A stretch of 64,000 nt of DNA from contig JAFCGC010000001.1 of the NCBI GenBank assembly GCA_017608305.1, forward strand, positions 38,744 through 102,743, read 5' to 3'. The translations under genes were made by a program, and so were the position numbers. How positions within the stretch are numbered: position 1 is the first letter of the stretch; every line of letters begins with the position of its first letter. The notes beneath the pieces are model-generated. The model did not search any database and was not told the DNA's origin. It saw only the letters and a program-made list of their open reading frames with translations. This document shows positions 8,423 through 56,556 of this stretch, piece after piece. Source of the stretch: Candidatus Pacearchaeota archaeon. GTDB taxonomy: Archaea > Nanobdellota > Nanobdellia > Pacearchaeales > GW2011-AR1.

Positions 8423-8431
8423 TAAAAAATT

Positions 8432-12888: not shown

Positions 12889-13548
12889 ATGACTGTGTAT
12901 AAAGACTTAAAAAAATTTCAAAAAAGTGTGGAGGAAGATGATTATGTGGTTTACTATTTTTACAGAAAACTTTCTAGGCCAATTAGTGCTTTAATGATTA
13001 AACTGGGGCTCAATACTTTTGTTGCATCATGGTTTACCTTTTTTTCAGATCTTTTTGCAATGTATCTTATCTATAAAGGAAGTTTTGTGATTGCTGGATT
13101 ATTTGTGATTTTAGCTTATGTTTTTGATTGTTGTGATGGGGAAATAGCAAGATATGACAAAGCAAGAAAGAAAATGAATCCAAACAGGATGTATGGGGCC
13201 TATCTTGATGAAATTTTGGGTGTTTTAGGTTTTTTTGGAGTAATTATATTCTTCAGCTATAAAATAGATCTTCTTTTGTTTGGAATTTTAGGAGGTTTAG
13301 GTTTATTAATGATAAATTTTAGCTGTTATGTTGCAAAGGATATTTTTCCAGAGAAACAAAAATTAGCTAAAAATCTTGAAAAAAAAGTTTTTGGAAATTT
13401 AAAAGGAAGAATTGGGTTTAGTGGGGGGGTTCAAAGAATATTAATTGCCTTAGCGATTATCTTTCATAGTGCTTTTTTACTATTTGTATTTGTGGCTTTG
13501 ATGAATGCTTTTTGGATTTTGAAATTTTGGATATATAGAAAACAATAA
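12889..13548 (+). CDS. CDP-alcohol phosphatidyltransferase family membrane protein
   Basis: 'DCCDGEIARYDKA...GAYLDEILG' resembles the DG(x)2AR...G(x)3D(x)3D motif. Several TM segments. Confidence 0.5.
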   Translation: MTVYKDLKKFQKSVEEDDYVVYYFYRKLSRPISALMIKLGLNTFVASWFTFFSDLFAMYLIYKGSFVIAGLFVILAYVFDCCDGEIARYDKARKKMNPNRMYGAYLDEILGVLGFFGVIIFFSYKIDLLLFGILGGLGLLMINFSCYVAKDIFPEKQKLAKNLEKKVFGNLKGRIGFSGGVQRILIALAIIFHSAFLLFVFVALMNAFWILKFWIYRKQ

Positions 13549-13554
13549 ACAAAA

Positions 13555-14244
13555 TTATTTTATGAGTGATTCTGCTTTTTTTAGATCATTTATGTCATCA
13601 ATCTCCATACATAATTCTTTATCATAAAACAAGGGTTTTAATCTAATTTTATCTGCATAAGGTTCAATTGCTTCTTCAGCATAACAATTAATTTTTCCTT
13701 GATCAACAAATTCCTTGATAGATTTAAGCCAAGTTAAAAAAGATTTTTTTGAAAATTTATACAAGGGCATGACTAAATTACCCTTAAAATCCACACCTAT
13801 TTTTTTAATTAAACCTTTTTCTATTTTTGCCTTAAAATCTTTTCCAGTAGAATATGGATTTATATGTGTTAATGCCGAATTTTTTTCTCTATGCTGTATT
13901 AATTTTTTTAATAACTTCTCTTCACAAACCAAATCTCCATGAATAAAGAGTATATCGTCATCAATCAAATTTTCTAGGTTTAATAAAGAACATATGTAAC
14001 TTCCTTTTTGTTCCGGAGGATCTTGAATAATCTTTGAATCTAAAGAAGGATACTCTCTGTATAAGAACTCTTGAATTAATTCAGATTTATATCCTGTTAA
14101 AAAAATTATTTCTTTTATTTCTAACTTCATTAAAGAATCAAGCATATAATTAGCTAAAGGTTTTTCTTTTATAGGAACAAGGAATTTTGGAACTGTTAAA
14201 TTCATTCTAGTTCCTAATCCTCCTGCAAGGATAATAGCTTTCAT
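13555..14244 (-). CDS. LicC-like nucleotidyltransferase (CTP:phospho-base / phosphonate cytidylyltransferase family)
   Basis: '[14 protein letters not shown]' N-terminus. 229 aa, the same size as LicC/PntC-type enzymes. Confidence 0.6.
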   Translation of the reverse strand: MKAIILAGGLGTRMNLTVPKFLVPIKEKPLANYMLDSLMKLEIKEIIFLTGYKSELIQEFLYREYPSLDSKIIQDPPEQKGSYICSLLNLENLIDDDILFIHGDLVCEEKLLKKLIQHREKNSALTHINPYSTGKDFKAKIEKGLIKKIGVDFKGNLVMPLYKFSKKSFLTWLKSIKEFVDQGKINCYAEEAIEPYADKIRLKPLFYDKELCMEIDDINDLKKAESLIK

Positions 14245-14245
14245 T

Positions 14246-15349
14246 TTAGTATAAATTATTTAAAATTTTTCTTAAAGAATCTTTTGTTAATAATCTAGGA
14301 TTGTTTTTAACTCTTTCTGGAGAAAATCCTTTTTCAACAAGAATCTCAAGATCTTTTACATGTACTCCTAAATTTGATAAGTTTGTTTCAAGCCCAATAT
14401 TACTCATTAAGTTTTTTATTTTTTCTCGAGCTTGGCTTACATTTTTTACTCCTAAAAGATTTACTAGATTGTTTATTATATTTTGAACATATTTTTCTCC
14501 TCTTTTATCTAAACAATCTTCTGGTGTTACTCCAAAATTATATTCTAACATCTGCCCTAGAGTTAATCCTACAGCATGGCCATGAGGTATATTGAAGTAA
14601 GAGGTGATTGGATAAGAAATTGAGTGACAAGCAGTTGTTTTTGAAATATTTATTGCTTTACCAGCTAAATTAGCTGCTTTCATAACATTCTCTTTAGATT
14701 CATTTGTAGGATTATTTACTGCTTGTTCTAGATTATTTAAAAGTAATTTTATTGATTTCTGTGCAAATTGTTTTGATTTTTCTATTGAATTAATAGACCA
14801 ATAAGACTCTATTGCTTGGCCTAAAGCATCTATTCCTGTTGAAGCAGCTATTTTTTTTGGAAGAGAAAAAGTTAATTCTGGATCACAAATTGAATAATTT
14901 GGGAGAGTTATATCTAAATTTCCTTTAGATTGTTTTTCTTTTCCAGTATAATAAACAATAAAAGAAGTTGCTTCACTTCCACTTCCTGCAGTTGTAGGTA
15001 TTGCTATTAAAGGTTTTTTATGACTAATTTTTTTATAAATTTTAATTGCCTTAGCAACATCTATTGCACTTCCTCCTCCTACAGCAATAATTGAATCATA
15101 TTTTCCTTTATTAAAAATTTTTGTGGCTTTTTTTATTTCACTTAATTGGGGATTTGGAGAGAAATTAGAAAATCTTTCATAATCTATGTTATTTTTATCC
15201 AAAATATTCTCTATTTTTTTTCTTGCCCCTGACAAGATAAATGAATTTTTTCCAGTGACTAAAAAAACTTTTTTTAGATTTTCTTTTTTTAAAATTGTTT
15301 CTAATTTATTTAAACTTCCAAGTCCAAAATATTCTTCTTGAGAGATCAT
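14246..15349 (-). CDS. Iron-containing alcohol dehydrogenase (phosphonoacetaldehyde reductase candidate, FomC/PhpC-like)
   Basis: 'IAVGGGSAIDVAKA' Fe-ADH motif. Position directly follows Ppd. Confidence 0.6.
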   Translation of the reverse strand: MISQEEYFGLGSLNKLETILKKENLKKVFLVTGKNSFILSGARKKIENILDKNNIDYERFSNFSPNPQLSEIKKATKIFNKGKYDSIIAVGGGSAIDVAKAIKIYKKISHKKPLIAIPTTAGSGSEATSFIVYYTGKEKQSKGNLDITLPNYSICDPELTFSLPKKIAASTGIDALGQAIESYWSINSIEKSKQFAQKSIKLLLNNLEQAVNNPTNESKENVMKAANLAGKAINISKTTACHSISYPITSYFNIPHGHAVGLTLGQMLEYNFGVTPEDCLDKRGEKYVQNIINNLVNLLGVKNVSQAREKIKNLMSNIGLETNLSNLGVHVKDLEILVEKGFSPERVKNNPRLLTKDSLRKILNNLY

Positions 15350-16476
15350 TTATTCAAAAATTCCATAAAAAATCTTTTATTTTCTAAAGGAGTATTTGTA
15401 GGCCTTCCTAACTCTTGTCTTGAACCTTTTTTTACTTTAACCACAACCATTTTAGGTCCTTTTTCATTCTTTAAGATACTCATTGTTTGAATTAACTCTT
15501 GGCTTGTTTCAACTTGGGATGCAAATCTATAACCACATCCCAATGCAATTTTTGAAAAATCAATATTATCTGAAATAGTTGGTTGGCCTCCTGTTGAATC
15601 ATAAGAACCATTATCAAAAATTAAATGTGTTAAATTTTCTGCTTTACTTGATCCAATATTTGCTAAAGCCCCCATTTGCATTAATGCTGCTCCATCTCCA
15701 TCAAAAACATAAATAGGTTTAGAAGGTTTTTGTAATGCTATTTCATTAGCAATAGAGGCTGAGCACCCCATACTTCCTACTGTTAAAAAATCTTTTTCAT
15801 GGCTTTGTTTTTTTTCTTTTCTATATTCAAATAATTCTCTAGATGTTTTTCCTGTTGTTGAAACAATTATTGCTTGTTTTTCTAATCCTCCCAAAATGGT
15901 ATGAATGGCTTGTTCTCCAGTCATTTCATACTTTCTTTTAGAAATATTTTGGGTTTCATATTTTTCAAAAATGCCTTTTTTAATTATAATTGCTGAAGCA
16001 TATTGGGTTTTTTCTGCTTTTGTTTTTGCCCATTCTATGGTCTGTTGCGCTTGCTCAATATTATCTGGTAAAATCTGAAAAGGAATCTCTAAAGTTTCTA
16101 ACTGAGATAACATAACTCTCCCCATCATTTTGTGTTGGGGCTCGTCTTTTAACTCGGGCTCTCCTCTCCATCCAACCATCAAAACTACAGGCATCGAATA
16201 TACTTCTTTAGCCATTAAAGAGGTTAAAGGATTTACTGTTTTTCCTAAACCAGAATTTTGCATATAAATTACTCCAATATTTCCGGTTGAAAGATGATAT
16301 CCTGCAGCAAGAGCAGTAGCTTCACATTCATTTACAGCAATTCTATTTGTCAATTTTGTCCCATTATTGTCTGCTAAAAATTTCATCCAATCCTTAAAAG
16401 TTGAGTCTGGAACTCCTGAAAAAAAAGTTAAATCATTTTTACTGAATATTTCTGCAATTTTTTCACATTTTATCAT
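15346..16476 (-). CDS. ppd: Phosphonopyruvate decarboxylase (TPP-dependent)
   Basis: TPP-binding '[16 protein letters not shown]'. About 376 aa. Immediately downstream of PEP mutase. Confidence 0.7.
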
Positions 16477-17795
16477 TTTCTTTCTGGAATTAAATCTAAT
16501 ATTTCTTTAATCGGTAAACAAAATTCATCTGCCTCTAGACTTCTTTCATTTTCAAGAATTGATTTTGCTGTTTTTACCATAGCAGGATAAGCACTCCTAA
16601 TTAAATGATTAGCATAGATTATTATGTTTGCTCCAATTTCTTCAAGTTGTTTTTCAGTAAGATGATTATAAGTTGTAGGAACAACTACAAGAGGTACTTT
16701 GTGTGGAAAATTGGAATATTCTTTGCAAAATTCAATTAATTCCCTTGCATCTTTCTCCTTACTATGGATCATTATTGCATCTGCTCCTGCCTCTATATAT
16801 GCTCTTGCTCTTAATAGGGCTTCATAAATCCCTTTTTTTAAAATAAGGCTTTCAATTCTAGCAATAATCATAAAATCATCTGTTACTTGTGATTTTTTGC
16901 CTCTAGAAATTTTTTCTGAAAAATTTGATATTTCATCTTGGATTTGAACCACATCTGTTCCAAGTAGAGAATTTCTTTTCAACCCTACTTTATCTTCTAT
17001 AATAACTGCAGAAACACCTAATCTTTCAAGACTTCTCACCATAAAAGCAAAATGTTCAATTTCTCCCCCATTATCTGCATCTAAAATAAGAGGTTTAGTT
17101 GTTGATTCTAATATTTGAGAAACAGTTTCTAGTCTTGAAGTTAAATCTATGACTCCAATGTCTGGTTTTCCTTTTGCTGTTGAATCTGTTAAACTACTAA
17201 TCCAAATGCCATCAAACTCTTTTACCCCCCCTTCTTTTACTACAGATGTTTTTTCAACAATTAATCCTGTAATTCCATTATGGGCTTCTAAAAATCTTAC
17301 AACTGGTTTGGCCTCTAATAATCTTTTTAAAGTTCTTTTTCTAATTTCAGGAGTTGTTCCTATTTCACGTAAAGCTTTATTTAATTGGTCTGAGGAAACA
17401 TCTTGGATGCGAGGGACTTCAATTAATTGACCTCCCCATTCTTCAAGAACTTTTATTACTTTTTCTCTTGTTGAACTTTGAATTCCGGTTTTCCAATCAT
17501 CACCATGAACAACATAATGAGGCCTTAATTGCCTTAAATTATCAGTATAATCTAATGTATTTTGAGGAATAACTTCTTTCACTCCTTTTATATTTTCAGC
17601 AATAATTTTTCTTTGGTCATAAGTCAAAAAAGGTAGGCGTTTATAACTTGCAATTGCTTTATCCGTTAATAATCCGATAATGATTTCTCCTAATTCTCTT
17701 GCCTTTTCTATTGTTTCTAAGTGTCCGTGATGCAACAAATCAGCACTAATGGCAACATAGACTTTTTTTATTATACTAAAATCTTGATTTTCCAT
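16473..17795 (-). CDS. pepM: Bifunctional cytidylyltransferase (HxGH type) / phosphoenolpyruvate phosphomutase (Fom1-like architecture)
   Basis: N-terminal '[19 protein letters not shown]' cytidylyltransferase motif. C-terminal ICL/PEP-mutase fold with 'AVIIEDKVG' (EDK motif). Confidence 0.75.
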
Positions 17796-18063: not shown

Positions 18064-19929
18064 ATGAGAGTTTTAGTTACAGGTGGGTGTGGTTTTATAG
18101 GGAGTAATTTTATTGGATTTTTGTTGGAAAATTTTGAAGAATTTAAAATAGAAGAAATTGTTAATCTAGATAAACAAACATATGCAGGAAGAGGGAAAAA
18201 TTTAGAACATATGAGCCTTACAATTCATCCAAGGTATGAATTTGTCAAAGGAGATATTTGTGATAAAAAGCTTGTTGATGAACTTTTTTCCAAACATAAA
18301 TTTGATTTAGTTTTTAATTTTGCAGCAGAAAGTCATGTGGATAGGAGCATAGAGGATCCAAATGCTTTCACCCAGACAAATATTTTTGGTACTCAAAATT
18401 TATTAGATGCTTGTCTAAAACATGGAATTTCAAAATTTATTCAAATTTCAACTGATGAAGTATATGGTAGTCTTTCTTCAGATTCTCCAAGTTCAAGAGA
18501 GTCAGATAGATTAAATCCAAGAAGCCCCTATTCTGCATCAAAAGCAAGTGCAGAAATGTTGTGTTTATCTTATTTTGAGACCCACAAGATTCCAATTTAC
18601 ATCACTAGAAGTTCAAATAACTATGGGCCTTATCAATTTACAGAAAAACTCCTTCCTTTATTTATTACAAATCTGATTCAAGGGAAAAAAGTTCCGTTGA
18701 TGTGGAGTGATGAAAATCCAGGGTTAAATGTTAGAGATTGGTTACATGTTAAAGATAATTGCAGAGGAATCTGGTTTGTTTCACAAAAAGGGCAACCAGG
18801 ACAAATATATAATATTGGAGGTAAAAATGAAAGAACAAACATAGAAATAACAGAATTTTTACTTAGATACTTTAGATATGATTCCACAATGATTGAAAAA
18901 ATTACTCATAGAAAAGGCCATGATTTTAGATATTCTATAAATACAGAAAAAATACAAAATCTTGGGTTTGAATTAAAATATTCTAATTTAGAGGAAGAAC
19001 TCTCAAAATTATGTGAATGGTATAAACAAAATGAAAATTGGTGGAAATCATTAAGCCAAACAAAAGGAATTATCTTAGCAGGAGGATTAGGAACACGGCT
19101 TTATCCTGCGACTAAAGTGGTTTGCAAACAATTATTACCAATATATGATAAACCCCTAATTTATTATCCTTTATCAACTTTAATGTTGGTGGGAATACGT
19201 GAAGTATTGATTATTAGTTGTCCAGAAGATGTGGAAAAATTCAAAAATTTATTGGGAGACGGTTCTAACCTAGGAATGAGAATTTCATATAAAGAGCAAC
19301 TTGAACCAAAAGGAATTGCTGAAGCGTTTATAATCGGAGAAAATTTCATTGGAAAAGATAATGTTTGTTTAATTTTAGGAGATAATATTTTTTATGGGCA
19401 AGGATTAACACCTCTATTACTAGAAGCAGCACAAATAAAAGAAGGAGCAATCTCATTTGCTTATCATGTTAGTGATCCTGAAAGATTTGGAGTTGTTGAG
19501 TTTGATAAAAATTATAATGTTTTATCAATTGAAGAAAAACCCCAAAATCCTAAATCAAACTATGCAGTAACTGGATTGTATTTTTATGATAATGATGTAA
19601 TTAATATTTCTAAAAATTTGGTTCCTTCTGGAAGAGGTGAACTTGAAATAAGTGATGTTAATAAAGAATATCTAAGAAGGGGAAAATTAAAGGTAAAGGT
19701 TATGGGAAGGGGTCTTGTTTGGATGGACGCTGGAACACAAGATTCTATGGCAGATATAACCTCTTATGTTAAATCTGTTCAAGATCGGCAAGCTCTAAAA
19801 ATAGCCTGCATTGAGGAAATTGCATATAGGAACAAATTCATAAATCTAGACCAACTACTTAAAAATGCTGAAGCTCTAAAAGCCTCTGATTATGGAAAAT
19901 ATCTTTTTAGAGTTGCTGAAGAAACATAG
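18064..19929 (+). CDS. Fused dTDP-glucose 4,6-dehydratase (RfbB) / glucose-1-phosphate thymidylyltransferase (RfbA)
   Basis: N-terminal '[14 protein letters not shown]' with 'YSASKAS' (YxxxK). C-terminal '[37 protein letters not shown]' RmlA motif. Confidence 0.8.
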
Positions 19930-19963
19930 AAATTTTTAAAAAGATTTAGATCTGAGAAAGGAA

Positions 19964-20854
19964 ATGGTTTGGGATGAAGTTAAAGGAGTAAGAAATAGAA
20001 ATTCAGAGCTAATTGGCCTACGTCATCCTCTAAAAAAATTTATTAATTCTATTTTGGGAATAAAAATTCCTGCATATCTTAATTATGCTAATGCTAAAAA
20101 AACCCTTAAAAAAGAATCAAAAAAAACAATTGCAAAAAAACAATTGCAAAAATGTGGTAAAATTGCATTGATATTTATGGGCACTCAAAAATACGTAAAG
20201 TTCTTTCCAAGGTATTATGCTAGTATTAAAAAAAATTTCTTACCTGATGTAAAAAAAGATTTCTATATTTTAACAGACCAAATAGATTATCTCCCAATTC
20301 AGAAGAAAAAAGATGTATTTATAAGAAAAATTAAACATGAGAATACTTCTTTTTCAACTTTATTTAGATTTAAGTATGTAAACAACCTTACAAAAGAATT
20401 AAAAAAATATTCCCATATAATTTATATTGATGTAGATATTTATGCTAAAAATCTTGTTTTAAAAGAAGAATTCTTTTGTCACAATAAATCTTTATTTGGT
20501 GTTCAACATCCAAATTTTGTAAATAAAAGAGGCCAATTTGAATTTGATCCTAGGTCAAAAGCATCAGTCAATGAAAAAAATGATTTATCCACATATTGGC
20601 AATGTAGTTTTTGGGGAGGAAAAAGTAAAGAGATTCTAAAAATGTGTAAGGAATTAAATAAAAGAATTAATTTAGATTTAAAAAATAAAATAATTGCTAT
20701 TTGGCTTGATGAATCTCATTTAAATAAATATTTTGTTGAAAACAAAAAAAAGGTTCATACTTATTCTCCTTCTTATACTTATCCTGGATTATGGCCTCGT
20801 CTTAGAGGGTATAAAAGAAGATTAATTCATGATAAAGGAAATGTTTTAAAATAA
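19964..20854 (+). CDS. Family 6 glycosyltransferase (ABO / alpha-1,3-galactosyltransferase-like)
   Basis: 'FLPDVKKDFYILTDQ', 'YIDVDIYA' (DVD) and 'FGVQHPNF' motifs, plus a match to the metazoan GT6 signature 'W(H/L)DESHLNKY(F/L)'. Confidence 0.7.
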   Translation: MVWDEVKGVRNRNSELIGLRHPLKKFINSILGIKIPAYLNYANAKKTLKKESKKTIAKKQLQKCGKIALIFMGTQKYVKFFPRYYASIKKNFLPDVKKDFYILTDQIDYLPIQKKKDVFIRKIKHENTSFSTLFRFKYVNNLTKELKKYSHIIYIDVDIYAKNLVLKEEFFCHNKSLFGVQHPNFVNKRGQFEFDPRSKASVNEKNDLSTYWQCSFWGGKSKEILKMCKELNKRINLDLKNKIIAIWLDESHLNKYFVENKKKVHTYSPSYTYPGLWPRLRGYKRRLIHDKGNVLK

Positions 20855-20926
20855 CCTCTAAATAAATTTAAGAAGATAATATTAAACCTCAATAAAACTT
20901 ATAAAGAATTTATCAAAAATAATTCA

Positions 20927-21928
20927 ATGATTGATCTAAAAAAAGAGTATAAAGACAAAAAAGTTCTAATTATCGGAGGATTAGGATTTATTGGGGGGAA
21001 TCTTGCAGAAAAACTAGTTGATCTTGAAGCAAGAGTAAGTGTAATGGATTCTTCATTAAAAAGATATGGTGCAAACCAATTTAATGTGCTTGAATTTAGA
21101 AATAAAATTGATATTGATTTTGGAGATACAAGAAACATATATGATGTTCAAAGAAATATATTAGATAAAGAAGTTATTTTTAATTTGTCTGGGCAAATTG
21201 ATCATAATTACAGTATGAAAGATCCCTCTTTAGATATAGATCTTAATTGTAAGGGACATATTAATGTATTACAAGAATGCAAAGAACATAATCCTAATTG
21301 TAGATTAATTTTTCCTGGGTCAAGAATGCAATATGGTAAAATAGCGGACCATGATCTCCCTGTTAATGAAAACCACCCTCTTAATCCCTTAAGCATTTAT
21401 GCAATAAATAAAACAGCAGGGGAAGGATATTATAAGGCCTATCATTTACAGCATAATCTAGACACTGCTGTAGTAAGGATTTCTAATCCATATGGCCCAA
21501 AGGCCCAAATAAAACATCCGGGATATTGTATTGTAAATTGGTTTATTAGACAATCCTTAGAAAGAAAAGATTTAACAATATTTGGGAATGGAACTCAATT
21601 AAGAGATTACATATTTATTGATGATTTAATAGAAGCCTTAATGGTTGTGGGAATACACCCTAATGCAAAGGGACAAATATTTAATATAGGTTCTGGTAAA
21701 GGGGCTGCTTTTGGAGATATGGCAAAAAAAATAGTGGAAATAACCGGATCTGGAAAAGTAAAAAATATGCCCTGGCCTAAAGAATACGAAAATGTAGAAA
21801 CTGGAAACCATTATTCTGATATATCAAAAATAGGTGATCATTTAGGATGGAGGCCAAAAATTGGTCTTGAAGAAGGAATTAAAAAAACAGTAGAATTTTA
21901 TAAAGAACATTTAGATAAATATATATAA
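20927..21928 (+). CDS. NAD-dependent nucleotide-sugar epimerase/dehydratase (extended SDR)
   Basis: 'VLIIGGLGFIGGNL' and 'YAINKTAGE' (YxxxK) motifs. Confidence 0.7.
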   Translation: MIDLKKEYKDKKVLIIGGLGFIGGNLAEKLVDLEARVSVMDSSLKRYGANQFNVLEFRNKIDIDFGDTRNIYDVQRNILDKEVIFNLSGQIDHNYSMKDPSLDIDLNCKGHINVLQECKEHNPNCRLIFPGSRMQYGKIADHDLPVNENHPLNPLSIYAINKTAGEGYYKAYHLQHNLDTAVVRISNPYGPKAQIKHPGYCIVNWFIRQSLERKDLTIFGNGTQLRDYIFIDDLIEALMVVGIHPNAKGQIFNIGSGKGAAFGDMAKKIVEITGSGKVKNMPWPKEYENVETGNHYSDISKIGDHLGWRPKIGLEEGIKKTVEFYKEHLDKYI

Positions 21929-21930
21929 AA

Positions 21931-22386
21931 ATGATACAAGATGTTCAAATAAAAAAAATAATAAAACATTGTGATGATAGGGGTTCTCTTGCTGAAATTT
22001 TGAAAAAAAGTGATACTTTTTTCAAAAAAATAAAACAAACTACTTATACTGAAAGTTATCCCGAGGTAATTAAAGCATTTCATTATCATAAAAAACAAGA
22101 TGATATTTGGTTTGTTGCAAAAGGAATGGCACAAATAGTTCTATATGATTTACGAAAAAGATCTAAAACAAAAGGGGAGACTCAAGTAATATATGCTGGA
22201 GAAGAAAATCCTGTTTTAGTTTTTATTCCGAGAGGTGTTGCGCATGGGTATAGAGTATTAGGAAATCAAAAAGTCTGTTTATTTTACCACACAACAGAAG
22301 AATATAATTCTAAAAAACCTGATGAGTTCAGGATTCCATATGACGACGAAGAAATTGGTTTTAATTGGACTACTCAAAATAAATAA
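21931..22386 (+). CDS. RmlC-like cupin (dTDP-4-dehydrorhamnose 3,5-epimerase or sugar 3,4-ketoisomerase-like)
   Basis: 'AFHYHKKQ' matches the RmlC 'RGLHYQ' region. 'FIPRGVAHGY'. Confidence 0.55.
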   Translation: MIQDVQIKKIIKHCDDRGSLAEILKKSDTFFKKIKQTTYTESYPEVIKAFHYHKKQDDIWFVAKGMAQIVLYDLRKRSKTKGETQVIYAGEENPVLVFIPRGVAHGYRVLGNQKVCLFYHTTEEYNSKKPDEFRIPYDDEEIGFNWTTQNK

Positions 22387-22439
22387 GAAGCCATTTAATA
22401 AAGAATATAAATTGGAATACATAGTAAAAAACATTAAAA

Positions 22440-23300
22440 ATGCTCTTAAAAAAGAAACTATACTCGCTTGTTCCTAAAAAACATAGAAGAAAAATTAAAT
22501 TTATTTATTATGGAAAAATTCTACATTTCTTATATAATTTAAAACACCAATTTTACTATAACCAAAAAGATTTTTTTGACGTTATTGCTTTAGAAACAAC
22601 AACATATTGTAATTTGCGTTGCAAATTTTGTCCAAATAGTATTTATGATCGAGGAATATTAAAAAATAAAAAATTAATGGACATTAAAATATTTAAAAAA
22701 ATTATAGATGAATTGTCTGAAATAAATTATCGTGGAAGGGTTTTGCTCTTTTCTTATGGAGAACCCTTAACTGATACTAGGCTTCCAGATTTAATCTCTT
22801 ATTGTAAACAAAAACTATCTAAAGCAAAAGTAGAAATAAATTCAAATGGAATTCTGTTGACAGTTCAAAAATATAAAACTCTTATTGATAGGGAGATAGA
22901 TAAAGTATGTATCACCCAATATGGGAAACAAATGCCTCCAAATACAAAAAAAGTGTTTGAATATCTTAAAACTAGACCTAAAAAAGAAAATAAAATTCAT
23001 TATAGGGTTTTAAATGAAATGGAGCTTTCTAATCGTGGTGGAGAAATTGAACTAAACTCTTCTGTTAACGACGAAGTTCCCATCTGCCTATATCCTACGC
23101 AAGCTTTAACAATAGATTATGCTGGAAATTTGATTTTGTGTTGTAATGACTACCATAGCTCTGCAAAATTTGGAAATCTTAAGAATAAAAAATTATTAGA
23201 AATTCTGGGAAAGTCAAATTATAAAAAGATACTAAAAAGAATAAAAAAAGGAATATATGATTTAGAAATTTGTAAAAAATGTGTTGGAATTAAAAGATAA
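22440..23300 (+). CDS. Radical SAM protein with C-terminal Cys-rich (SPASM/twitch-like) region
   Basis: 'TTTYCNLRCKFCPNS'. C-terminal 'LCCNDY...CKKCVG'. Confidence 0.65.
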   Translation: MLLKKKLYSLVPKKHRRKIKFIYYGKILHFLYNLKHQFYYNQKDFFDVIALETTTYCNLRCKFCPNSIYDRGILKNKKLMDIKIFKKIIDELSEINYRGRVLLFSYGEPLTDTRLPDLISYCKQKLSKAKVEINSNGILLTVQKYKTLIDREIDKVCITQYGKQMPPNTKKVFEYLKTRPKKENKIHYRVLNEMELSNRGGEIELNSSVNDEVPICLYPTQALTIDYAGNLILCCNDYHSSAKFGNLKNKKLLEILGKSNYKKILKRIKKGIYDLEICKKCVGIKR

Positions 23301-23301
23301 G

Positions 23302-24813
23302 CTAATGTTTTTTTCTTTTTATTAAAATTTTAATGAGTTCTAAGTCTTCTTTTGTAATTGCCTTAAGAAAAAACATTGAAAGGAGATAAATAGAAGCACC
23401 AAAAAAGATGATCAAGGCTCCTGAAATTAGACTTAATTCATTAATTAATCTTAAAACAAGAGTTAATATGCCCCACATTATTATGCTTGATATTATTGGT
23501 TTTATAGTTGGTTTTAATGAAATTTTCATTTTAAATCTTCTTTTTGAAATTAAAAGGGCTGCAAAGAAATAAAATGTCCAACTCAAAAATGTTGCCATTC
23601 CTACTCCTATCATCGCCCATGAAGGAGATATTAATAATAAAAACTTGATAAAAATCAAATTGAGTAAGATATTTAACCCAACAGAAATTATTATTAATTT
23701 GGCAAATATTTTTGGTTTTTCTTTTGCAGAAAAAAAGGAAAGAAAAATACCTACAAAAACTATTGGGAAAATTAAAAATGCTAAAACATACAAGGGACAT
23801 GCTGATAAAAGGTAATCTTCCCCAAAAAGAAGCTTAATAAAATATCTTGCAAAAAGAATTAATCCAAATGAGCAAGGAAAACTCAACATTGCTACGTATT
23901 TTACTGCCCGATTTATAATTTTTTCTGAAACAAAATTATCTATTTTAGTGAAAACAGGCAAAAGAATTGCATTTGGAAATGAAGCAATAGTTGTTAATCC
24001 AAGAATAATTGAAAAAGCTGCTTGATAATACCCTACATATACTGTTGGAAGAAATAATCCCAACATAATTGAATCAATATAAGAGAAAAAAACTGCCGAA
24101 ACACTTGCAATAGTTATAAATTTGATAAAAGTTTTTATTTTTCTCTTATCTATCTTTTCTTTCGCTTTGTGATATATCTCAGGAATTAATTTTTTTAAAG
24201 AAAAAAGAACCCAAATAAGTACAATAAAATGAATAAAAGCTAATAAAAGAAAAATGGCAGTAATTTGATAAACTGAGGATACAAAATAAAAAATTAAAAG
24301 AACTAATCCCACTCTTAAAACTTGTGTTAAAAATTGTCTATAGCCCATATATTTTGCTTTTTCAATAGAATAAAACACTTGGGCATGAAACATATCAAAG
24401 GAAATTGCAACAACAAAAATTGGAGCAATTAAAAAAGGTAGAAAAAGGATAGGATTATCATAGAAATAAAACGCAAGAGGATATGCTAATAAAATTAAGA
24501 TAAAGAAAACAGAAAGAGTTAAAATTATTTTTATTTTAAGCAAATATTTATAATAAGAAGAAATTTTATTTTTATTTTTTTCTACAGCCTCAGACAAATA
24601 TCTTACTAAAGTGGAGCTTATTCCTAAATCAGCAAAAATAAAAAAAATCATAATTGTTGAAAAAACAATTGTATACATTCCATAACCTTCTGGCATTAAG
24701 AATCTCGCTAAAATTATTGTGAATGCTAGTCCCCCAAATCTATTTATTACTGTTGCAAATAAATTCCAAAAAGAATTTTTAACTAGCCTCTCTTTAAGAT
24801 TTATATTTTTCAT
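23302..24813 (-). CDS. Oligosaccharide/polysaccharide flippase (Wzx, MOP superfamily)
   Basis: 503 aa with about 12-14 TM segments. Glycan-locus context. Confidence 0.6.
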   Translation of the reverse strand: MKNINLKERLVKNSFWNLFATVINRFGGLAFTIILARFLMPEGYGMYTIVFSTIMIFFIFADLGISSTLVRYLSEAVEKNKNKISSYYKYLLKIKIILTLSVFFILILLAYPLAFYFYDNPILFLPFLIAPIFVVAISFDMFHAQVFYSIEKAKYMGYRQFLTQVLRVGLVLLIFYFVSSVYQITAIFLLLAFIHFIVLIWVLFSLKKLIPEIYHKAKEKIDKRKIKTFIKFITIASVSAVFFSYIDSIMLGLFLPTVYVGYYQAAFSIILGLTTIASFPNAILLPVFTKIDNFVSEKIINRAVKYVAMLSFPCSFGLILFARYFIKLLFGEDYLLSACPLYVLAFLIFPIVFVGIFLSFFSAKEKPKIFAKLIIISVGLNILLNLIFIKFLLLISPSWAMIGVGMATFLSWTFYFFAALLISKRRFKMKISLKPTIKPIISSIIMWGILTLVLRLINELSLISGALIIFFGASIYLLSMFFLKAITKEDLELIKILIKRKKH

Positions 24814-37479: not shown

Positions 37480-38439
37480 TTATTCTTCTTGAATTTTTCT
37501 TTGAAAAAAATCTGCATTTTCTTTTAATCCTTCAAGAAAATCTATTTTAGGCCTCCACCCTAATTCTTTTTTAATTTTTTTTGAATCTGCTACCAGAATA
37601 GAAGGGTCTCCAAGTCTTCTTTCTGATTCAACAACCTTAAAATCTCTTTTAGTTACTTTTTTAACTGCATCAATTACTTGTTTAACAGAAACTCCTTTTC
37701 CTGTACCCACATTATATATTTTTGATTCTTGATCTAAGTCTTGTAATGCTAAAATGTGAGCATCTGCTAAATCCTGAACATGAACATAATCTCTAATACA
37801 AGTTTTGTCTGGGGTTTTATAATCTGTTCCAAAAATATTTATCTGAGATCTTTTACCGAGTGCTGCTAGCAATACTAAAGGGACTAAATGTGTCTCTGGA
37901 TCGTGTCTTTCTCCTAAATCCCCCATACTTCCAGTAGCATTAAAATATCTCAAAGAGGTAGACTTTATCTCATAAAGAGAATCATACCATTGTAATATTT
38001 GTTCAAACATGAGTTTTGTTTCTCCGTAAAAATTAGCAGGTTTTCTTGTATCTTCTTCTTTAAGGGGCCTGTTTTTTGGAGCATATACTGCTGCTGATGA
38101 AGAATAAATTATTTTCTTCACATTATTTTTTAACATTGTGTCAAGAAGTCTCAATCCATTGATTACATTATTTCCAAAAAATTTAGGAGGATTTTGCATT
38201 GATTCTCCTGCTTCTATAAATCCTGCAAAATGCACAACTGCTTCTGGATTAAATTTTTTAAAGGTTTGATCAAGAAGTTCTTTATTACTTAAACATCCTT
38301 GAACAAAATGAGTATTAACAGACTTCCTGTGACCTTTTATTAAACTATCATAAACTAAAACCTTGTGCCCTTCTTCAATTAATTTTCTTGTTGCTACACT
38401 ACCAATATAGCCCGCACCTCCTGTAATTAGAACTCTCAT
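37480..38439 (-). CDS. galE: UDP-glucose 4-epimerase
   Basis: 'MRVLITGGAGYIGS', 'YGETK' and a GalE-like C-terminus. Confidence 0.75.
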   Translation of the reverse strand: MRVLITGGAGYIGSVATRKLIEEGHKVLVYDSLIKGHRKSVNTHFVQGCLSNKELLDQTFKKFNPEAVVHFAGFIEAGESMQNPPKFFGNNVINGLRLLDTMLKNNVKKIIYSSSAAVYAPKNRPLKEEDTRKPANFYGETKLMFEQILQWYDSLYEIKSTSLRYFNATGSMGDLGERHDPETHLVPLVLLAALGKRSQINIFGTDYKTPDKTCIRDYVHVQDLADAHILALQDLDQESKIYNVGTGKGVSVKQVIDAVKKVTKRDFKVVESERRLGDPSILVADSKKIKKELGWRPKIDFLEGLKENADFFQRKIQEE

Positions 38440-53367: not shown

Positions 53368-53368
53368 A

Positions 53369-53836
53369 ATGGAATCAATTCAACAAAAACAAACTAAAGA
53401 AGAAGAAAGAGTTATTAGAATCCTTTCTACAGACATAGAAGGAAAAACAAGCATTTATGCGGGCTTGGCAAAGATAAAAGGAGTTTCGTGGAGTTTATCA
53501 AATGCTATATGTCAAATTCTAAAGCTTGATAAAAAAAGAAAAGTGGGTTCTTTAACTGAAGGGGAAATAAAAAAAATATCAGAATTTATCAAAGACCCTA
53601 AAGTTCCCGAATACTTATTGAATAGAAAAAAAGATCCAGAAACAGGTGAAAATAAACACCTAAATGGAAGTGATCTTGAATTAAGAAATGAATTTGATTT
53701 GAAGAGACTCAAACAAATAAAAAGTTATAGAGGAATAAGACATTCTGCAGGACTTCCTGTAAGAGGGCAAAGAACTAAAGGAAATTTCAGAAAAAATAGA
53801 AAAAAAGGAACAGGAATTAAAAAGAAGAAAAAATAA
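53369..53836 (+). CDS. rps13: 30S ribosomal protein S13 (uS13)
   Basis: 'RILSTDIEGKTSIYAGLAKIKGV...SYRGIRHSAGLPVRGQRTK'. Confidence 0.85.
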   Translation: MESIQQKQTKEEERVIRILSTDIEGKTSIYAGLAKIKGVSWSLSNAICQILKLDKKRKVGSLTEGEIKKISEFIKDPKVPEYLLNRKKDPETGENKHLNGSDLELRNEFDLKRLKQIKSYRGIRHSAGLPVRGQRTKGNFRKNRKKGTGIKKKKK

Positions 53837-53852
53837 ATAAAAACAATTTCAA

Positions 53853-54323
53853 ATGAAAAGAAAACACAAACAGTATTCAAGACCAAAAAGACCTTTTGAC
53901 AAATTAAGAATAGACGAAGAATCAAAAATCAAAAAGGATTTTGGATTAAAAAATAAAAAAGAAATTTGGAAAGCAAATGCTAAAATTAAATCTATGAGAG
54001 AAAAGGCAAAAAAATTAATTTCTGCAGATCCAAAAGAACAACAAGCATTATTTGAAAGATTAAAAAAAATGGGTTTAAAAGTAAATTCTATTTCAGATAT
54101 TTTGGGTTTAGAAAAAAAAGATTATCTGAAAAGAAGACTTCAAACAGTTGTGTTTGAGAAAAAACTTACTACCACTCCAAAACAAGCTAGACAATTAATT
54201 GTTCACAAAAAAGTTCTTGTAGATAAAAAAGTAGTCAATAGTCCTTCTTATATTGTTTCATTAGATCTAGAGGACAAAATAAGTGTTAAGAAAAAGGAGG
54301 CTAAAAAAACAAATAAAGGATAA
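53853..54323 (+). CDS. rps4: 30S ribosomal protein S4 (uS4)
   Basis: 'RPKRPFDKLRIDEE...RRLQTVVF' S4 pattern. Confidence 0.8.
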   Translation: MKRKHKQYSRPKRPFDKLRIDEESKIKKDFGLKNKKEIWKANAKIKSMREKAKKLISADPKEQQALFERLKKMGLKVNSISDILGLEKKDYLKRRLQTVVFEKKLTTTPKQARQLIVHKKVLVDKKVVNSPSYIVSLDLEDKISVKKKEAKKTNKG

Positions 54324-54751
54324 TGGTAGAAAAAGAAACAACAAAACTAGAAAAAGCCCCTGAAAAGAAAAAAGACAAAAATATAGAGGCAGTGGTCAAT
54401 ATTTATACCTCTTTTAATAATACAATTGTTCATGTCACAGACATGTCTGGAAAAACCATTTCAAAGGTTACTGGGGGAATGGTTACAAAACATGGGAGAC
54501 TTAAAGCAAATCCTACAATCGCCATGTTTATCACAAAAAGAATAGCAGAAAATATTAAAGACCTTGGGGTAAAATCTTTGTATGTGAGAATAAGAGCTAA
54601 AACAAGAAATCCTGCACCTGGACCTGGTGCCCATGCAATAGTTAAAAGCCTATCAAGAGAGGGTTTTAGAATTTTAAATATACTCGATACAACAAGAATC
54701 CCTAGAGGAGGCCCAAAGAAAAAAGGAGGCCGAAGAGGAAGGAGGCCTTAA
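54323..54751 (+). CDS. rps11: 30S ribosomal protein S11 (uS11)
   Basis: 'IVHVTDMSGKTISKVTGGM...AAKTRNPAPGPGAHAIVKSL'. Confidence 0.85.
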   Translation: MVEKETTKLEKAPEKKKDKNIEAVVNIYTSFNNTIVHVTDMSGKTISKVTGGMVTKHGRLKANPTIAMFITKRIAENIKDLGVKSLYVRIRAKTRNPAPGPGAHAIVKSLSREGFRILNILDTTRIPRGGPKKKGGRRGRRP

Positions 54752-54810
54752 AAATAAGTCCTAGGGGAGGAGACCTTAAGATTTAAATAGGCATTTTATG
54801 ATATTTTAAG

Positions 54811-55533
54811 ATGAAAATAACAAATAAAAAAGATAATAAGATCTCATTTGTGGCAGAGATAGAAGAGAGCTTAGCAAATTCTATAAGAAGATATACTAAT
54901 CAAATCCCAGTAATGGCTATTGATGAAGTGGAAATATCTCTAAACGATTCTCCATTATATGATGAAACAATTGCCCATAGAATGGCATTAATCCCTTTAA
55001 AATCAGAAAAAAAAGAAGGTAAAAAAGAACCCTTTAAGCTTAAATTAAATTCAAAAAAAGAAGGAATAGTTTATTCTGGAGAATTAATTGGGCCCATAAA
55101 ACAAGTATATGATAAAATTCCTATCACTGTTTTAAAAAAAGGCCAAGAATTAGAAATTGTGGCTTTTGTAAAATCAGGTAAGGGAACAGAGCATTCAAAA
55201 TTTTCCCCAGGACTAATGTTTTACAGAAATATTGTTGATCTAAAAATAAATAAAGATTGTCCTAAGGAAGTCGTTGAAGTTTGCCCACAAAAAATATTGG
55301 GCCTAGAAAATGGAAAAATAATTGTTAAAGACAATTATTTGTGTGATATTTGTGATTCTTGTGTTGAAGAGTGTAAAAAACAAGGAAAAGAACCTATTCA
55401 AATTGTTCCTACAAAAGAATTGATGATTAGTATTGAATCTTTTGGTCAAATAAGTGTGGAAGATATTTTCAAAAAAGCTATTAATGTGCTTAAAAAAGAT
55501 TTAACAGAAGCTTCAAAAAAGATTGGTAAGTGA
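54811..55533 (+). CDS. rpoD: DNA-directed RNA polymerase subunit D (Rpo3) with 4Fe-4S Cys motif
   Basis: 'SLANSIRR' dimerisation motif. 'CPKEVVEVCPQ...CDICDSCVEEC'. Confidence 0.8.
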   Translation: MKITNKKDNKISFVAEIEESLANSIRRYTNQIPVMAIDEVEISLNDSPLYDETIAHRMALIPLKSEKKEGKKEPFKLKLNSKKEGIVYSGELIGPIKQVYDKIPITVLKKGQELEIVAFVKSGKGTEHSKFSPGLMFYRNIVDLKINKDCPKEVVEVCPQKILGLENGKIIVKDNYLCDICDSCVEECKKQGKEPIQIVPTKELMISIESFGQISVEDIFKKAINVLKKDLTEASKKIGK

Positions 55534-55576
55534 TAATTCTAAACCTTTTTATATAGATAATTAGTTGTAAAAATAA

Positions 55577-55660
55577 GCGGAGTTGCCGGAGCGGTCAAAC
55601 GGGACAGACTCAAAATCTGTTAGCTTAGTGCTTACGAAGGTTCGAATCCTTTACTCCGCA
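55577..55660 (+). tRNA. tRNA-Leu(CAA)
   Basis: 'GCGGAGT TG CCGGAGCGGTCAAACGGG ACAGA CTCAAAA TCTGT TAGCTTAGTGCTTAC GAAGGTTCGAATCCTTT ACTCCGC A'. Confidence 0.85.
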
Positions 55661-55704
55661 TAGGGAGTAGAAGGTTTTATAAGTTAATTCTTAAATCCAA
55701 CAAT

Positions 55705-56397: not shown

Positions 56398-56556
56398 ACT
56401 CATACCCCATAATTAGGAGGTTTTAAATACTCAAATCATCTTGGTTTTTTTACCTGCGAGTCAAAAGCTCGTTCAAGATCTCGGGATGAATTTAAAATTC
56501 TCTCGTCCTTAAACTCGGCGTTAGCGGGAAGTTAATTACTTCTTGCTAGATTAAAA

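Follow-up and report, generated by a model that had tools for sequence, protein, structure and literature searches.

A GT6-family glycosyltransferase encoded in a predicted surface-glycan gene island of a DPANN archaeon

Introduction

The GT6 family of glycosyltransferases comprises the human ABO enzymes and those that make the α-Gal xenoantigen. Its distribution is odd, covering vertebrates, a few host-associated bacteria and cyanophages, and has been used as an argument for gene transfer from prokaryotes to vertebrates. In the structural literature of 2014, the family was stated to be absent from archaea (PMC3961637), and prokaryotic members bearing a DXD motif are described there as rare exceptions (PMC3961637, PMC3516806). 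An open reading frame (ORF) in the 64-kb stretch of DNA analyzed here (the window) raises the question of whether an archaeon carries an authentic GT6 enzyme and, if so, how it was acquired and what it might make.

Results and Discussion

The ORF Encodes a GT6 Glycosyltransferase

The gene and its catalytic domain are located as follows:
19964..20854, + strand: GT6 glycosyltransferase ORF, with an ATG start and 296 amino acids; the end coordinate includes the stop codon (ORF list and sequence)
20159..20818, + strand: GT-A catalytic domain, residues 66-285 (Pfam, NCBIfam and PDB alignments; HMM envelope 65-285)

Pfam family PF03414 (Glyco_transf_6) matched the ORF with E = 9.7e-21 and a score of 74.3 bits (gathering cut-off, 25), residues 66-273 aligning with profile positions 76-286 of 313, and it was found in all relatives. 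It was the sole significant Pfam family, the scan matching no other glycosyltransferase family. In a phmmer search of the PDB, the bacterial enzyme BoGT6a (E = 4e-21), human ABO transferases (E~3e-17) and bovine α3GalT (E~8e-11) were each matched in a single continuous alignment over residues 66-277, and 60/60 of the PDB sequence matches listed were GT6. An AlphaFold (AF2) model (pLDDT 91.9, pTM 0.91) was compared with the PDB using Foldseek; the best 50 matches were all GTA, GTB or BoGT6a, with E~1e-21 and TM up to 0.87. The ORF thus encodes a true GT6-family glycosyltransferase with a GT-A fold, the profile, the full-domain alignments and the predicted fold all agreeing with a first-pass annotation that had called it ABO/α3GalT-like from its motifs. 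Those motifs are all present, i.e., FYILTDQ (residues 100-106), YIDVDIYA (154-161), FGVQHPNF (178-185) and WLDESHLNKYF (247-257). It had also been considered that the best matches might belong to a different GT-A family such as GT8 and that no full-length alignment might support the signature; the GT6 matches spanned the full domain, so the GT6 assignment stands.

The curated bacterial model of NCBIfam (NF041524, Gltr_6) matched residues 66-277 with 149.1 bits (E = 1.4e-43) and its cut-off of 250 bits was not reached, so that the protein has diverged from the curated bacterial set and lies outside the NF041524 subfamily. No GT6 paralogue was found by tblastn elsewhere in the 64-kb window, where the gene is single-copy.

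The Host Is a DPANN Archaeon

The taxonomic anchor of the window is a single cluster:
53369..57697, + strand: archaeal-type S13, S4, S11, RpoD, tRNA-Leu, L13 and S9, preceded by DUF655 at 52831-53367

Across this cluster, archaeal NCBIfam models outscored their bacterial counterparts 2-3-fold, and RpoD scored 183 bits with NF001988 against a cut-off of 153. The GC content of the window is uniform at 27-33% (~29%), with the GT6 gene equal to its flanks, and gene density is unbroken. From the presence of archaeal S13, S4, S11, RpoD, L13 and S9 genes on the contig that carries GT6, and from its uniform composition, we conclude that the host is an archaeon, as the first reading of the sequence had held; we place it in the DPANN group, as Woese-/Pacearchaeota-like. 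An intact DXD-type GT6 gene is therefore physically linked to archaeal core genes, and the family reaches a second prokaryotic domain.

A Conserved Catalytic Core with Altered Substrate Contacts

Three motifs define the active site:
20429..20437, + strand: DXD metal/UDP-binding motif D156-V157-D158, equivalent to human D211-V-D213 and BoGT6a N95-A-N97 (pairwise HMMER alignments and residue mapping)
20600..20608, + strand: donor-specificity triplet Q213-C214-S215, equivalent to human 266-268 (L-G-G in GTA, M-G-A in GTB) and to A-G-G in BoGT6a
20702..20728, + strand: family signature W247-L-D-E250-S-H-L-N-K, in which the catalytic glutamate E250 is equivalent to human E303, BoGT6a E192 and α3GT E317

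The DXD motif was invariant in the 27 relatives compared, as were signature residues D, E, S, L, N and K (DESxLNK), and the window protein retains the catalytic residues Y77, R135, D156, D158, H182, Y211, W247, D249 and E250. Whereas 55+ bacterial loci have NAN, NSN or NGT at the metal site, the window protein has DVD. Divalent-metal-dependent activity has been demonstrated for the vertebrate enzymes and for PaGT6 of Parachlamydia acanthamoebae, and in the experiments on PaGT6 metal dependence follows the DXD motif (PMC3516806, PMC3961637). PaGT6 belongs, with cyanophage P-SSM2 and marine-metagenome homologues, to the clade-1 GT6 of Brew/Acharya (PMC3516806), which like the window protein has DXD and no C-terminal basic-hydrophobic-basic (BHB) tail; since both have the motif, metal dependence would be expected here too, by analogy with PaGT6, GTA/B and α3GT.

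The best PDB sequence match, BoGT6a of Bacteroides ovatus (PDB 4AYJ, 4CJ8), is about 25-30% identical and also gave the best target-normalized structural overlap with the model (TM 0.87 over the BoGT6a chain). Its core residues H122, Y153, W189 and E192 are kept, but it has N95-A-N97 and is metal-independent, where the window protein has D156-V-D158. The human GTA and GTB structures share the GT-A fold of the model (E~1e-21) at a sequence identity of about 25%; compared with these and with bovine α-1,3-galactosyltransferase, DVD is identical to human D211-V-D213 and the WxDESHLNKY signature is near-identical, but the equivalents of vertebrate residues 235, 245, 266-268, 301 and 326 differ.

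These differences fall among the substrate contacts. The acceptor-contact set (human H233, T245, W300, E303 and D326; BoGT6a H122, T134, Y153, W189 and E192) was compared over the reliably aligned region, which ends short of the C-terminal determinants BoGT6a I228/K231 and human A343/K346. Of this set, H182, Y211, W247 and E250 are kept, but the acceptor-contacting threonine (human T245, BoGT6a T134) is E193, human D326 is P274 and the position equivalent to human 235 is Asn. In the donor-sugar pocket, L248 occupies the place of the usual His (human H301, BoGT6a H190). All three equivalents of human T245, H301 and D326 are thus altered, and given the L248, E193 and P274 replacements the substrates may differ from those of every characterized GT6. 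The donor triplet, which the earlier annotation had singled out for inspection, reads Q-C-S, neither A-type (L-G-G) nor B-type (M-G-A), and differs from the A-G-G (GalNAc) of BoGT6a. It is variable among archaeal subclades (QCS, QGC, QAC, QCC, AGT, VGA and others), as is the acceptor loop around H182, which varies widely within the archaeal clade. E193 and a triplet of the Q-G-C type are among the family-specific residues shared with clade-1 GT6. At 296 residues, the protein is a tractable candidate for studying the evolution of metal dependence and of donor and acceptor specificity.

A Putative N-Terminal Membrane-Association Module

The catalytic domain is preceded by an additional segment:
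19964..20158, + strand: helical BHB extension, residues 1-65, found specifically in the archaeal-type clade; proposed membrane-association module

The extension has a net charge of +12, is amphipathic around residues 16-33 and is helical over residues 12-18, 22-31 and 34-52 of the AF2 model. The highest 19-residue Kyte-Doolittle mean in the protein (KD19) was 0.74, so it contains no transmembrane segment, unlike the vertebrate GT6 enzymes, type II membrane proteins of the Golgi that have a transmembrane segment and stem at the N terminus. The extension is kept across the clade of ~300-residue proteins, with lengths of 44-77 residues, and in relatives it is under purifying selection (pN 0.066 vs pS 0.57). 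Phage and bacterial forms lack it, the phage and other short forms beginning at the catalytic domain; clade-1 enzymes are accordingly minimal catalytic domains of about 235-245 residues (~27 kDa). Only 11 residues follow the catalytic domain in the window protein, so that its BHB-like segment is N-terminal and there is no C-terminal BHB tail. Bacterial NXN enzymes, by contrast, carry a BHB tail at the C terminus, and neither extension nor tail is present in phage forms (PMC3516806 and the present comparison). By analogy, the N-terminal extension may attach the enzyme to the membrane, in which case the archaeal clade would add a third type of membrane-association module to GT6. A Pfam match to S1FA at residues 31-63 (E = 0.02) was below the cut-off and was dismissed as reflecting the lysine-rich composition of the N terminus.

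The Gene Lies in a Predicted Surface-Glycan Island

The neighboring genes are as follows:
12889..17795, strand marked '.': phosphonate block in the same glycan island, comprising CDP-OH_P_transf-like, NTP_transferase, Fe-ADH and TPP decarboxylase genes and a CTP-transferase+PEP-mutase fusion
18064..19929, + strand: fused dTDP-glucose 4,6-dehydratase and glucose-1-phosphate thymidylyltransferase (RfbB-RfbA), upstream and co-directional, its stop 34 nt before the GT6 start
20927-21928, + strand: SDR epimerase/dehydratase, downstream of GT6 and co-directional
21931-22386, + strand: RmlC-like cupin, downstream and co-directional
22440-23300, + strand: radical-SAM/SPASM protein, downstream and co-directional
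23302..24813, - strand: Wzx-type (Polysacc_synt) flippase, 503 amino acids, which repeatedly adjoins GT6 in DPANN loci

Both halves of the RfbB-RfbA fusion scored above their NCBIfam cut-offs (rmlA, 450 bits; dTDP_gluc_dehyt, 397 bits). Homologues of the downstream genes (20927..23300) adjoin GT6 in L002, L003, L162 and L163. Flippase homologues of 47-51% identity lie beside GT6 in L002, L003 and L006, and the flippase is present in L162 and L163 too. The phosphonate block adjoins GT6 also in L162 and in L015, where most of its genes are 57-70% identical. Taking L002, L003, L006, L014, L015, L162 and L163 together, genes for flippase, GT4, GT2, radical-SAM, SDR and phosphonate functions are repeatedly found next to GT6, and nine DPANN MAG contigs, each assembled independently, carry genes with 50-70% identity to the neighbors of GT6 in the window. 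The synteny of flippase, GT4, radical-SAM and phosphonate genes is common to Woese-, Pace- and Nanoarchaeota loci, even where the GT6 subclades are 40% identical. BoGT6a likewise lies in a surface-polysaccharide gene cluster and has a BHB accessory segment, C-terminal in bacteria and N-terminal here. No oligosaccharyltransferase (AglB) was found within the 64-kb window.

A role as dedicated UDP-Gal/GalNAc 4-epimerase was weighed for the SDR gene. The PDB entry matching it best was a UDP-glucose 4-epimerase (E = 2e-35), but the gene fell under every NCBIfam cut-off and dehydratases were equally similar, so no assignment was made. A scan of 17700-23400 for sigma-70 promoters and intrinsic terminators, which is inapplicable to archaeal promoters, gave 26 promoter-like sites vs 32 in shuffled sequences.

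Origin of the Archaeal GT6 Gene

Trees were built by neighbour-joining (NJ), with an uncertain root and with taxon labels taken from MAG bins. The window protein fell in a clade of about 38 sequences, whose bootstrap support rose from 71 to 87 after viral sequences were added. All 9/9 taxonomically labelled members of the clade are DPANN (Woese-/Pace-/Nanoarchaeota), and none of the sequences in it carries a viral or bacterial label in the NJ trees. The closest GTDB loci are Woese-, Pace- and Nanoarchaeota MAGs, and the nearest relatives of the protein (40-57% identity) are from DPANN archaea, not bacteria or phages. Within the clade, it groups with L002 and L003, both Woesearchaeota loci, in a subclade of 11 members ('WLDESH'). 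It has the features of this archaeal-type clade, i.e., a length of ~290-310 residues, DXD, an N-terminal BHB-like extension, monophyly and a glycan island with a Wzx flippase. The nearest non-archaeal relatives by sequence are of clade-1 type (cyanophage, IMG/VR; 34-46% identity), and the archaeal sequences differ from them in forming a separate clade and in the added 44-77 residues. The sister group of the archaeal-type clade (bootstrap of the union 85-87) consists of multidomain bacterial DXD-type fusions from Omnitrophota, Ca. Spongiihabitans, Acidobacteriota and Saprospiraceae (P0047-P0063), 42-52% identical over the catalytic domain and with a Q-G-C triplet. In these, GT6 is part of proteins of about 370-1240 residues with GT2/GT32-like, GT4, GT11, methyltransferase or PLOD-GT+PqqD modules, whereas the window enzyme stands alone.

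Could the gene nevertheless be a degenerate remnant, a contaminant or a recent arrival? Assignment to another GT-A family such as GT8 is refuted by the exclusively GT6 matches among the sequences listed and the best 50 structures; decay might be suspected from the sub-threshold NCBIfam score and from L248 at a normally conserved His, but the ORF is intact, the catalytic residues are all kept, related GT6 pairs have dN/dS of 0.05-0.23, and L248 is common to the 11-member subclade and is thus a lineage trait rather than decay. We give next to no credence to either version. Nor do we attach any appreciable probability to a bacterial gene made 'archaeal' by mis-assembly or mis-binning. The sequence is metagenome-derived (JGI 3300033153, contig Ga0366824_1001365) and MAG labels are fallible, as illustrated by a 1.7-kb 'Thermoplasmatales' contig and by L066/L067, contigs of 54% GC whose 'Woesearchaeota' label is doubtful; however, GT6 and the ribosomal-protein cluster lie on one continuous sequence of even composition, the identical protein is present on two contigs (41 and 105 kb), and the neighboring genes recur on the nine independent contigs. 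A recent one-off transfer of a bacterial or phage gene into this archaeon has more to recommend it, since GT6 is patchy, its other prokaryotic matches are almost all from bacteria or phages, the NJ trees place the archaeal clade within DXD-type sequences of phages and bacteria, and archaeal GT6 was not known to the 2014 literature (PMC3961637). Even so, we regard it as very improbable, because the gene shows no compositional anomaly, its closest relatives form a monophyletic DPANN clade with its own extension, synteny extends across all three archaeal groups, and the extension is missing from the best phage match, which has only 34-46% identity. The horizontal acquisition proposed in the first-pass annotation consequently survives in part: a lone recent event is disfavored, and any transfer, in either direction, would be old and at the level of the clade, given its DPANN-only labels, its own extension and its conserved synteny. 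The archaeal GT6 is a previously undescribed branch of an enzyme family that is well understood and whose PF03414 tag it already bears in sequence databases; it is not a new kind of system.

Proposed Function

We consider it probable that the product of the gene is a functional DPANN enzyme of CAZy family GT6, from an archaeal-type clade that joins an ancestral-type DXD site to an N-terminal BHB extension, and that it acts as follows. The enzyme would be held at the cytoplasmic face of the membrane by its extension, in a role analogous to that of the BHB tail at the C terminus of bacterial GT6 and of the transmembrane segment and stem at the N terminus of vertebrate GT6. A UDP-sugar would be bound via Mn2+ or Mg2+ coordinated by D156 and D158 and, with E250 as the key catalytic residue, the sugar would be transferred with retention (α) to the 3-OH of a β-Gal or β-GalNAc on a lipid-linked oligosaccharide. 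That glycan would have been assembled by neighboring GT2 and GT4 enzymes, with dTDP-derived 6-deoxy-amino sugars and probably phosphonate, and the adjacent Wzx-type flippase would export it to the cell surface. The likely activity is that of a retaining, metal-dependent α-1,3-Gal(NAc) transferase with a lipid-linked glycan as its substrate; retaining α-1,3-Gal/GalNAc transfer to a β-Gal/GalNAc acceptor is what family membership, by itself, would predict (PMC3516806). We also infer the linkage, the donor, the acceptor and the surface destination of the product.

The original suggestion of a blood-group-A/B-like epitope is not supported. A genuine histo-blood-group A/B-type synthase would need a Fucα1,2-Gal (H-type) acceptor, as do BoGT6a, PaGT6, WbnI and human GTA/GTB, and several observations are consistent with one: Y211, W247, E250 and His182 (= H233/H122; Gln in the non-fucose α3GT) are conserved, and an H-type acceptor is required by the DXD-type PaGT6 (PMC3516806); and GT11 is fused to GT6 in P0053, a relative with about 45% identity, and adjoins it in cyanophages B3/B23. 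However, a search for the GT11 family of fucosyltransferases revealed none by Pfam in the island and none by tblastn (E<=0.01) across the 64 kb of the window and 12 related DPANN loci, so that the locus differs from PaGT6, GalNAc-specific on H-antigen, in having no GT11 partner. The E193, P274 and Asn replacements, the Q-C-S triplet and the high variability of the acceptor loop around H182 also argue against it, and we judge such a synthase unlikely. A terminal α-Gal or α-GalNAc of some kind is the expectation at the level of the family.

The locus points to surface glycans capped with α-Gal(NAc), and possibly phosphonylated, in uncultured episymbiotic archaea, organisms with a largely uncharacterized surface chemistry. 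Extending the proposed function to the whole clade, we advance, as a tentative idea about which we are more doubtful than confident, that DPANN archaea hold their own long-resident, metal-dependent GT6 lineage, in which the N-terminal BHB segment is a third independent solution to membrane attachment, the enzymes cap a phosphonate-decorated, 6-deoxy-amino-sugar surface glycan with α-Gal/GalNAc, and variable donor and acceptor loops diversify the epitopes shown to hosts and viruses. If such a lineage exists, the published absence of GT6 from archaea would be overturned, and the pool of DXD-type prokaryotic GT6, thought to be the source of the vertebrate ABO and α-Gal enzymes, would be larger.

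As to the donor, UDP-GalNAc is used by PaGT6, the DXD-type enzyme from a prokaryote that has been tested (PMC3516806). For the window enzyme UDP-Gal is somewhat favored over UDP-GalNAc, on two positions only, because neither the equivalent of human position 266 nor that of 268 is Gly. UDP-Gal might be made by an epimerase of the island:
37480..38439, - strand: UDP-glucose 4-epimerase GalE, which could provide UDP-Gal (or UDP-GalNAc) as donor (372 bits with TIGR01179; cut-off, 262)

An Archaeal Genome Encodes a GT6 Glycosyltransferase

The first-pass annotation had placed a GT6-family (ABO/alpha-1,3-GalT-like) enzyme in this archaeon at 19964-20854. The ORF (+ strand, ATG-initiated, 296 aa) has exactly those coordinates, and it contains all of the motifs claimed, i.e., FYILTDQ (aa 100-106), YIDVDIYA (154-161, with D156-V-D158), FGVQHPNF (178-185) and WLDESHLNKYF (247-257). 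Glyco_transf_6 (PF03414) was the sole significant Pfam family, matching aa 66-273 at E=9.7e-21 with 74.3 bits, where the gathering score is 25. When all PDB sequences were searched with phmmer, the only matches were GT6 enzymes, i.e., BoGT6a from Bacteroides ovatus (E=4e-21), dozens of human ABO transferase (GTA/GTB) entries (~3e-17) and bovine alpha-1,3-galactosyltransferase (~8e-11), each aligned as a single stretch (aa 66-277). An AlphaFold2 model with 27 homologues as input was confident (pLDDT 91.9, pTM 0.91), and its best 50 Foldseek matches in the PDB were without exception GTA, GTB or BoGT6a (E~1e-21; TM 0.87, normalized to BoGT6a). Because Pfam, phmmer and Foldseek all pointed to GT6, rather than to GT8 or another GT-A family with an isolated motif match, the assignment is secure. 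The NCBIfam GT6 subfamily model NF041524 also matched (E=1.4e-43), yet the score of 149 bits fell below the curated cut-off of 250, so the protein is a GT6 that diverges from the curated bacterial set and lies outside it. Since only 34 nt separate the upstream stop codon from the GT6 start, and three further sugar-metabolism genes follow on the same strand, the gene is part of a run (18064-23300) that resembles an operon.

The archaeal host was also borne out, by a cluster physically linked to the GT6 gene:

52831-57697: DUF655, S13, S4, S11, RpoD (240 aa, Rpb3-type), tRNA-Leu, L13, S9

For the proteins of this cluster, archaeal NCBIfam models outscored bacterial ones two- to threefold (uS4_arch 144 bits vs rpsD_bact 51; uS9_arch 138 vs 79), and RpoD scored 183 bits with NF001988 (cut-off 153). 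GC content was 25-34% across the window and 27-30%, with no anomaly, in the GT6 region, and the identical protein occurs twice, on a 41-kb and on a 105-kb contig. The gene therefore lies physically within an archaeal genome, and the host is secure. Neighboring genes share 50-70% identity with their counterparts on MAG contigs of Woesearchaeota and Pacearchaeota; because no rRNA gene besides 5S was found in the 64-kb window, we infer, rather than observe, that the organism belongs among these DPANN lineages. The 5S rRNA gene (43119-43234, +) is directly abutted by a LAGLIDADG-domain ORF (43233-43901, -), with three tRNA genes (41991-42761) just upstream.

The Window Protein Belongs to a Rare DXD-Type Clade

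A word-indexed search of 5.8 billion proteins gave 45 matches, of which 32 were ~280-325 aa long and aligned (42-57% identity) over 78-100% of the query, into the N-terminal region; the others were mostly ~238-aa proteins without that region. Both DXD aspartates and the DESxLNK core were kept in 27 of 27 aligned sequences. When 1.84 billion representatives (50% identity) were scanned exhaustively with HMMER, 1,892 GT6 proteins reached E<=1e-3, whereas 56 reached E<=1e-30; among the matches listed from the latter set, about seven (~290-305 aa) aligned into the N-terminal extension. The family is small, and the sub-type of the window protein is rare.

In GTDB, searched with one genome per species, the best loci (40-53% identity) came from Woese-, Pace- and Nanoarchaeota MAGs (L002-L007, L009, L014, L015), with a few from bacteria (Omnitrophota, Ca. 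Spongiihabitans, Acidobacteriota, Saprospiraceae); the remaining ~65 were bacterial (25-37%). A motif table of 120 domains split cleanly. DXD was seen in the archaeal sequences, in the metagenomic proteins related to them and in a few bacteria, and NXN or NGT in nearly all other bacterial genomes (e.g., Bacteroidota, Lachnospiraceae, Acinetobacter, Akkermansia and Francisella). Relatives were also present on 210 IMG/VR viral contigs (34-46% identity) and in 72 GenBank phage records, nearly all cyanophages (34-39%). These matches were confined to aa ~64-289, and the best 80 viral loci had at the N terminus either nothing extra or an unrelated fusion of ~316 aa, the latter being seen in some IMG/VR genes.

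In neighbor-joining trees (Kimura distances, 200 bootstraps), the window protein fell in a 38-sequence clade, whose support rose from 71% in trees free of viral sequences to 87% once 31 viral representatives were included. All nine DPANN-labelled loci of ~300 aa fell in this archaeal-type clade, which contained no viral sequence and none labelled bacterial. Inside it, the window protein joined L002 and L003 of Woesearchaeota in a subclade of 11 members (71%) that have the unusual WLDESH state in common. The sister group (union support 85-87%) comprised GT6 domains in mostly bacterial multidomain proteins of 479-1027 aa, the close relatives carrying GT2+GT32-like, GT4, methyltransferase or PLOD-GT+PqqD modules and, once (P0053), GT11. 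Short phage-type forms branched outside. Because the rooting is uncertain and the method simple, we limit the conclusion to the archaeal-type group being monophyletic and lying nested within DXD-type sequences from the environment.

The sister-group proteins (L008, L010, L012, L013; P0047-P0063) are large (about 370-1240 aa), PLOD-type fusions having two PLOD-type GT domains and one PqqD domain, and are apparently single-polypeptide glycan assembly lines. Two identical 16.6-kb loci labelled Woesearchaeota (L066, L067; CAZHOH; match 8001-8612) encode a different GT6, with a DAD motif and the donor region YYAGGFNGG, that groups weakly with human GTA (bootstrap 52-67) outside the archaeal-type clade; given their high GC (54%), the archaeal label is doubtful. 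A 1.7-kb contig binned as Thermoplasmatales (L017, 222-905) encodes a short phage-type DXD GT6 (239 aa) that clusters with IMG/VR viral sequences, and is probably viral or mis-binned rather than a second archaeal lineage.

A search of the full-text literature covering archaea and DPANN lineages turned up no description of a GT6 from archaea, although the window protein and its relatives already carry the PF03414 tag in the sequence collection. Both the enzyme family and its chemistry are known; what is new is the domain of life in which they occur, along with a clade and an accessory module.

A Conserved N-Terminal Extension

That module, aa 1-65, is conserved across the archaeal-type clade and predicted to form three helices in the AlphaFold2 model. 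No transmembrane segment was found in it (19-residue Kyte-Doolittle mean peaking at 0.74). It has a net charge of +12 and a basic, hydrophobic/amphipathic, basic layout (RHPLKK / FINSILGIKIPAYLNY / KKTLKKESKK). In the closely related pair L004/L005, pN in the extension was 0.066 vs a pS of 0.57 (whole-gene dN/dS ~0.05), showing that it is translated and constrained. Three GT6 architectures have been described (PMC3516806), i.e., a minimal DXD form, a vertebrate form whose N terminus carries a TM and stem, and a bacterial NXN form whose C terminus is a basic-hydrophobic-basic tail for membrane association. We confirmed C-terminal tails of 35-60 aa in bacterial NXN loci; the window protein has none. 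With its clade-wide N-extension and no C-terminal tail, the archaeal-type clade represents a fourth architecture, in which the extension may, by analogy, serve in membrane association.

GT6 Resides in a Conserved Glycan Island

The GT6 gene lies within a ~40-kb glycan island:

18064-19929 (+), 621 aa: RfbB (dTDP-glucose 4,6-dehydratase) and RfbA (glucose-1-phosphate thymidylyltransferase) fused in one ORF
Additional genes: several SDRs, RmlC-like cupin, DegT aminotransferase, formyltransferase, GNAT
5681-7075 (-), 464 aa: GT9 (heptosyltransferase-like) domain with C-terminal NUDIX hydrolase domain
Other glycosyltransferases: GT2 (two copies), GT4, PMT-like GT-C
Further genes: GtrA, Wzx-type flippase, UbiA, PAP2, UDP-glucose dehydrogenase, clear GalE
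Several radical-SAM enzymes
12889-17795, phosphonate block: CTP-transferase+PEP-mutase fusion (16473-17795, -), TPP-dependent decarboxylase, Fe-ADH, NTP-transferase, CDP-alcohol-phosphatidyltransferase-like

The RfbB and RfbA halves scored 397 and 450 bits, both above NCBIfam equivalog cut-offs. Woesearchaeota L014 has a 53% identical GT9-NUDIX homologue. The flippase, GT4, B12-radical-SAM, radical-SAM/SPASM, GT2 and SDR genes again adjoin GT6 in L002, L003, L006, L014, L162 (a 339-kb contig) and L163, and the phosphonate block is likewise a neighbor of GT6 in L162 and in Pacearchaeota L015, where most of its genes are 57-70% identical. Recurrence even between GT6 subclades just 40% identical argues that GT6 has long resided in the island and helps to build a lipid-linked glycan for export. 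The phosphonate block suggests that a glycan or lipid of a DPANN archaeon is decorated with hydroxyethyl- or aminoethyl-phosphonate. At the end of the island lie homologues of SecD and SecF (39389-41792, -), the former with a PDZ domain at its N terminus. The pair is found in this place in L003 and L006 too, so that the boundary of the island appears conserved among DPANN genomes.

Active Site, Donor and Acceptor

Residues were mapped via HMMER alignments, excluding C-terminal determinants, where alignment was unreliable. D156-V-D158 corresponds to human D211-V-D213 and to N95-A-N97 of BoGT6a. Also kept are Y77 (= Y126), R135 (= R188), H182 (= H233/H122), Y211 (= Y264/Y153), W247 (= W300/W189), D249 (= D302) and E250 (= E303/E192); mutation of E192 to Gln in BoGT6a lowers kcat 2x10^4-fold (PMC3516806). 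Substituted positions are N184 for Gly/Ser235, E193 for Thr245/Thr134 (acceptor contact), L248 for His301/His190 (donor-sugar pocket) and P274 for human Asp326.

We infer the donor, acceptor and metal dependence of the window protein. Its donor-specificity triplet is Q213-C214-S215, vs L-G-G (GTA), M-G-A (GTB) and A-G-G (BoGT6a), and neither equivalent of human 266 and 268 is Gly. In GTA and BoGT6a, small side chains at these positions are generally credited with making room for the N-acetyl group. Because of the 266/268 equivalents we lean to UDP-Gal, which the GalE of the island could supply, but with low confidence, since PaGT6 of Parachlamydia acanthamoebae, a tested DXD-type enzyme, uses UDP-GalNAc (PMC3516806). 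The donor triplet and acceptor loop vary strongly between archaeal subclades, as expected of enzymes diversifying surface epitopes. With no GT11 detectable within the 64-kb window or among 12 DPANN loci, an H-antigen acceptor lacks its usual partner. GT11 does occur among relatives, in one GT11-GT6 fusion and in cyanophage genes adjoining GT11. In the Synechococcus cyanophages B3 and B23 (MN695334/MN695335, H7/H8), a GT11, of the fucosyltransferase family, is annotated under the GT6 match or next to it, the classical pairing of H-antigen and A/B transferases.
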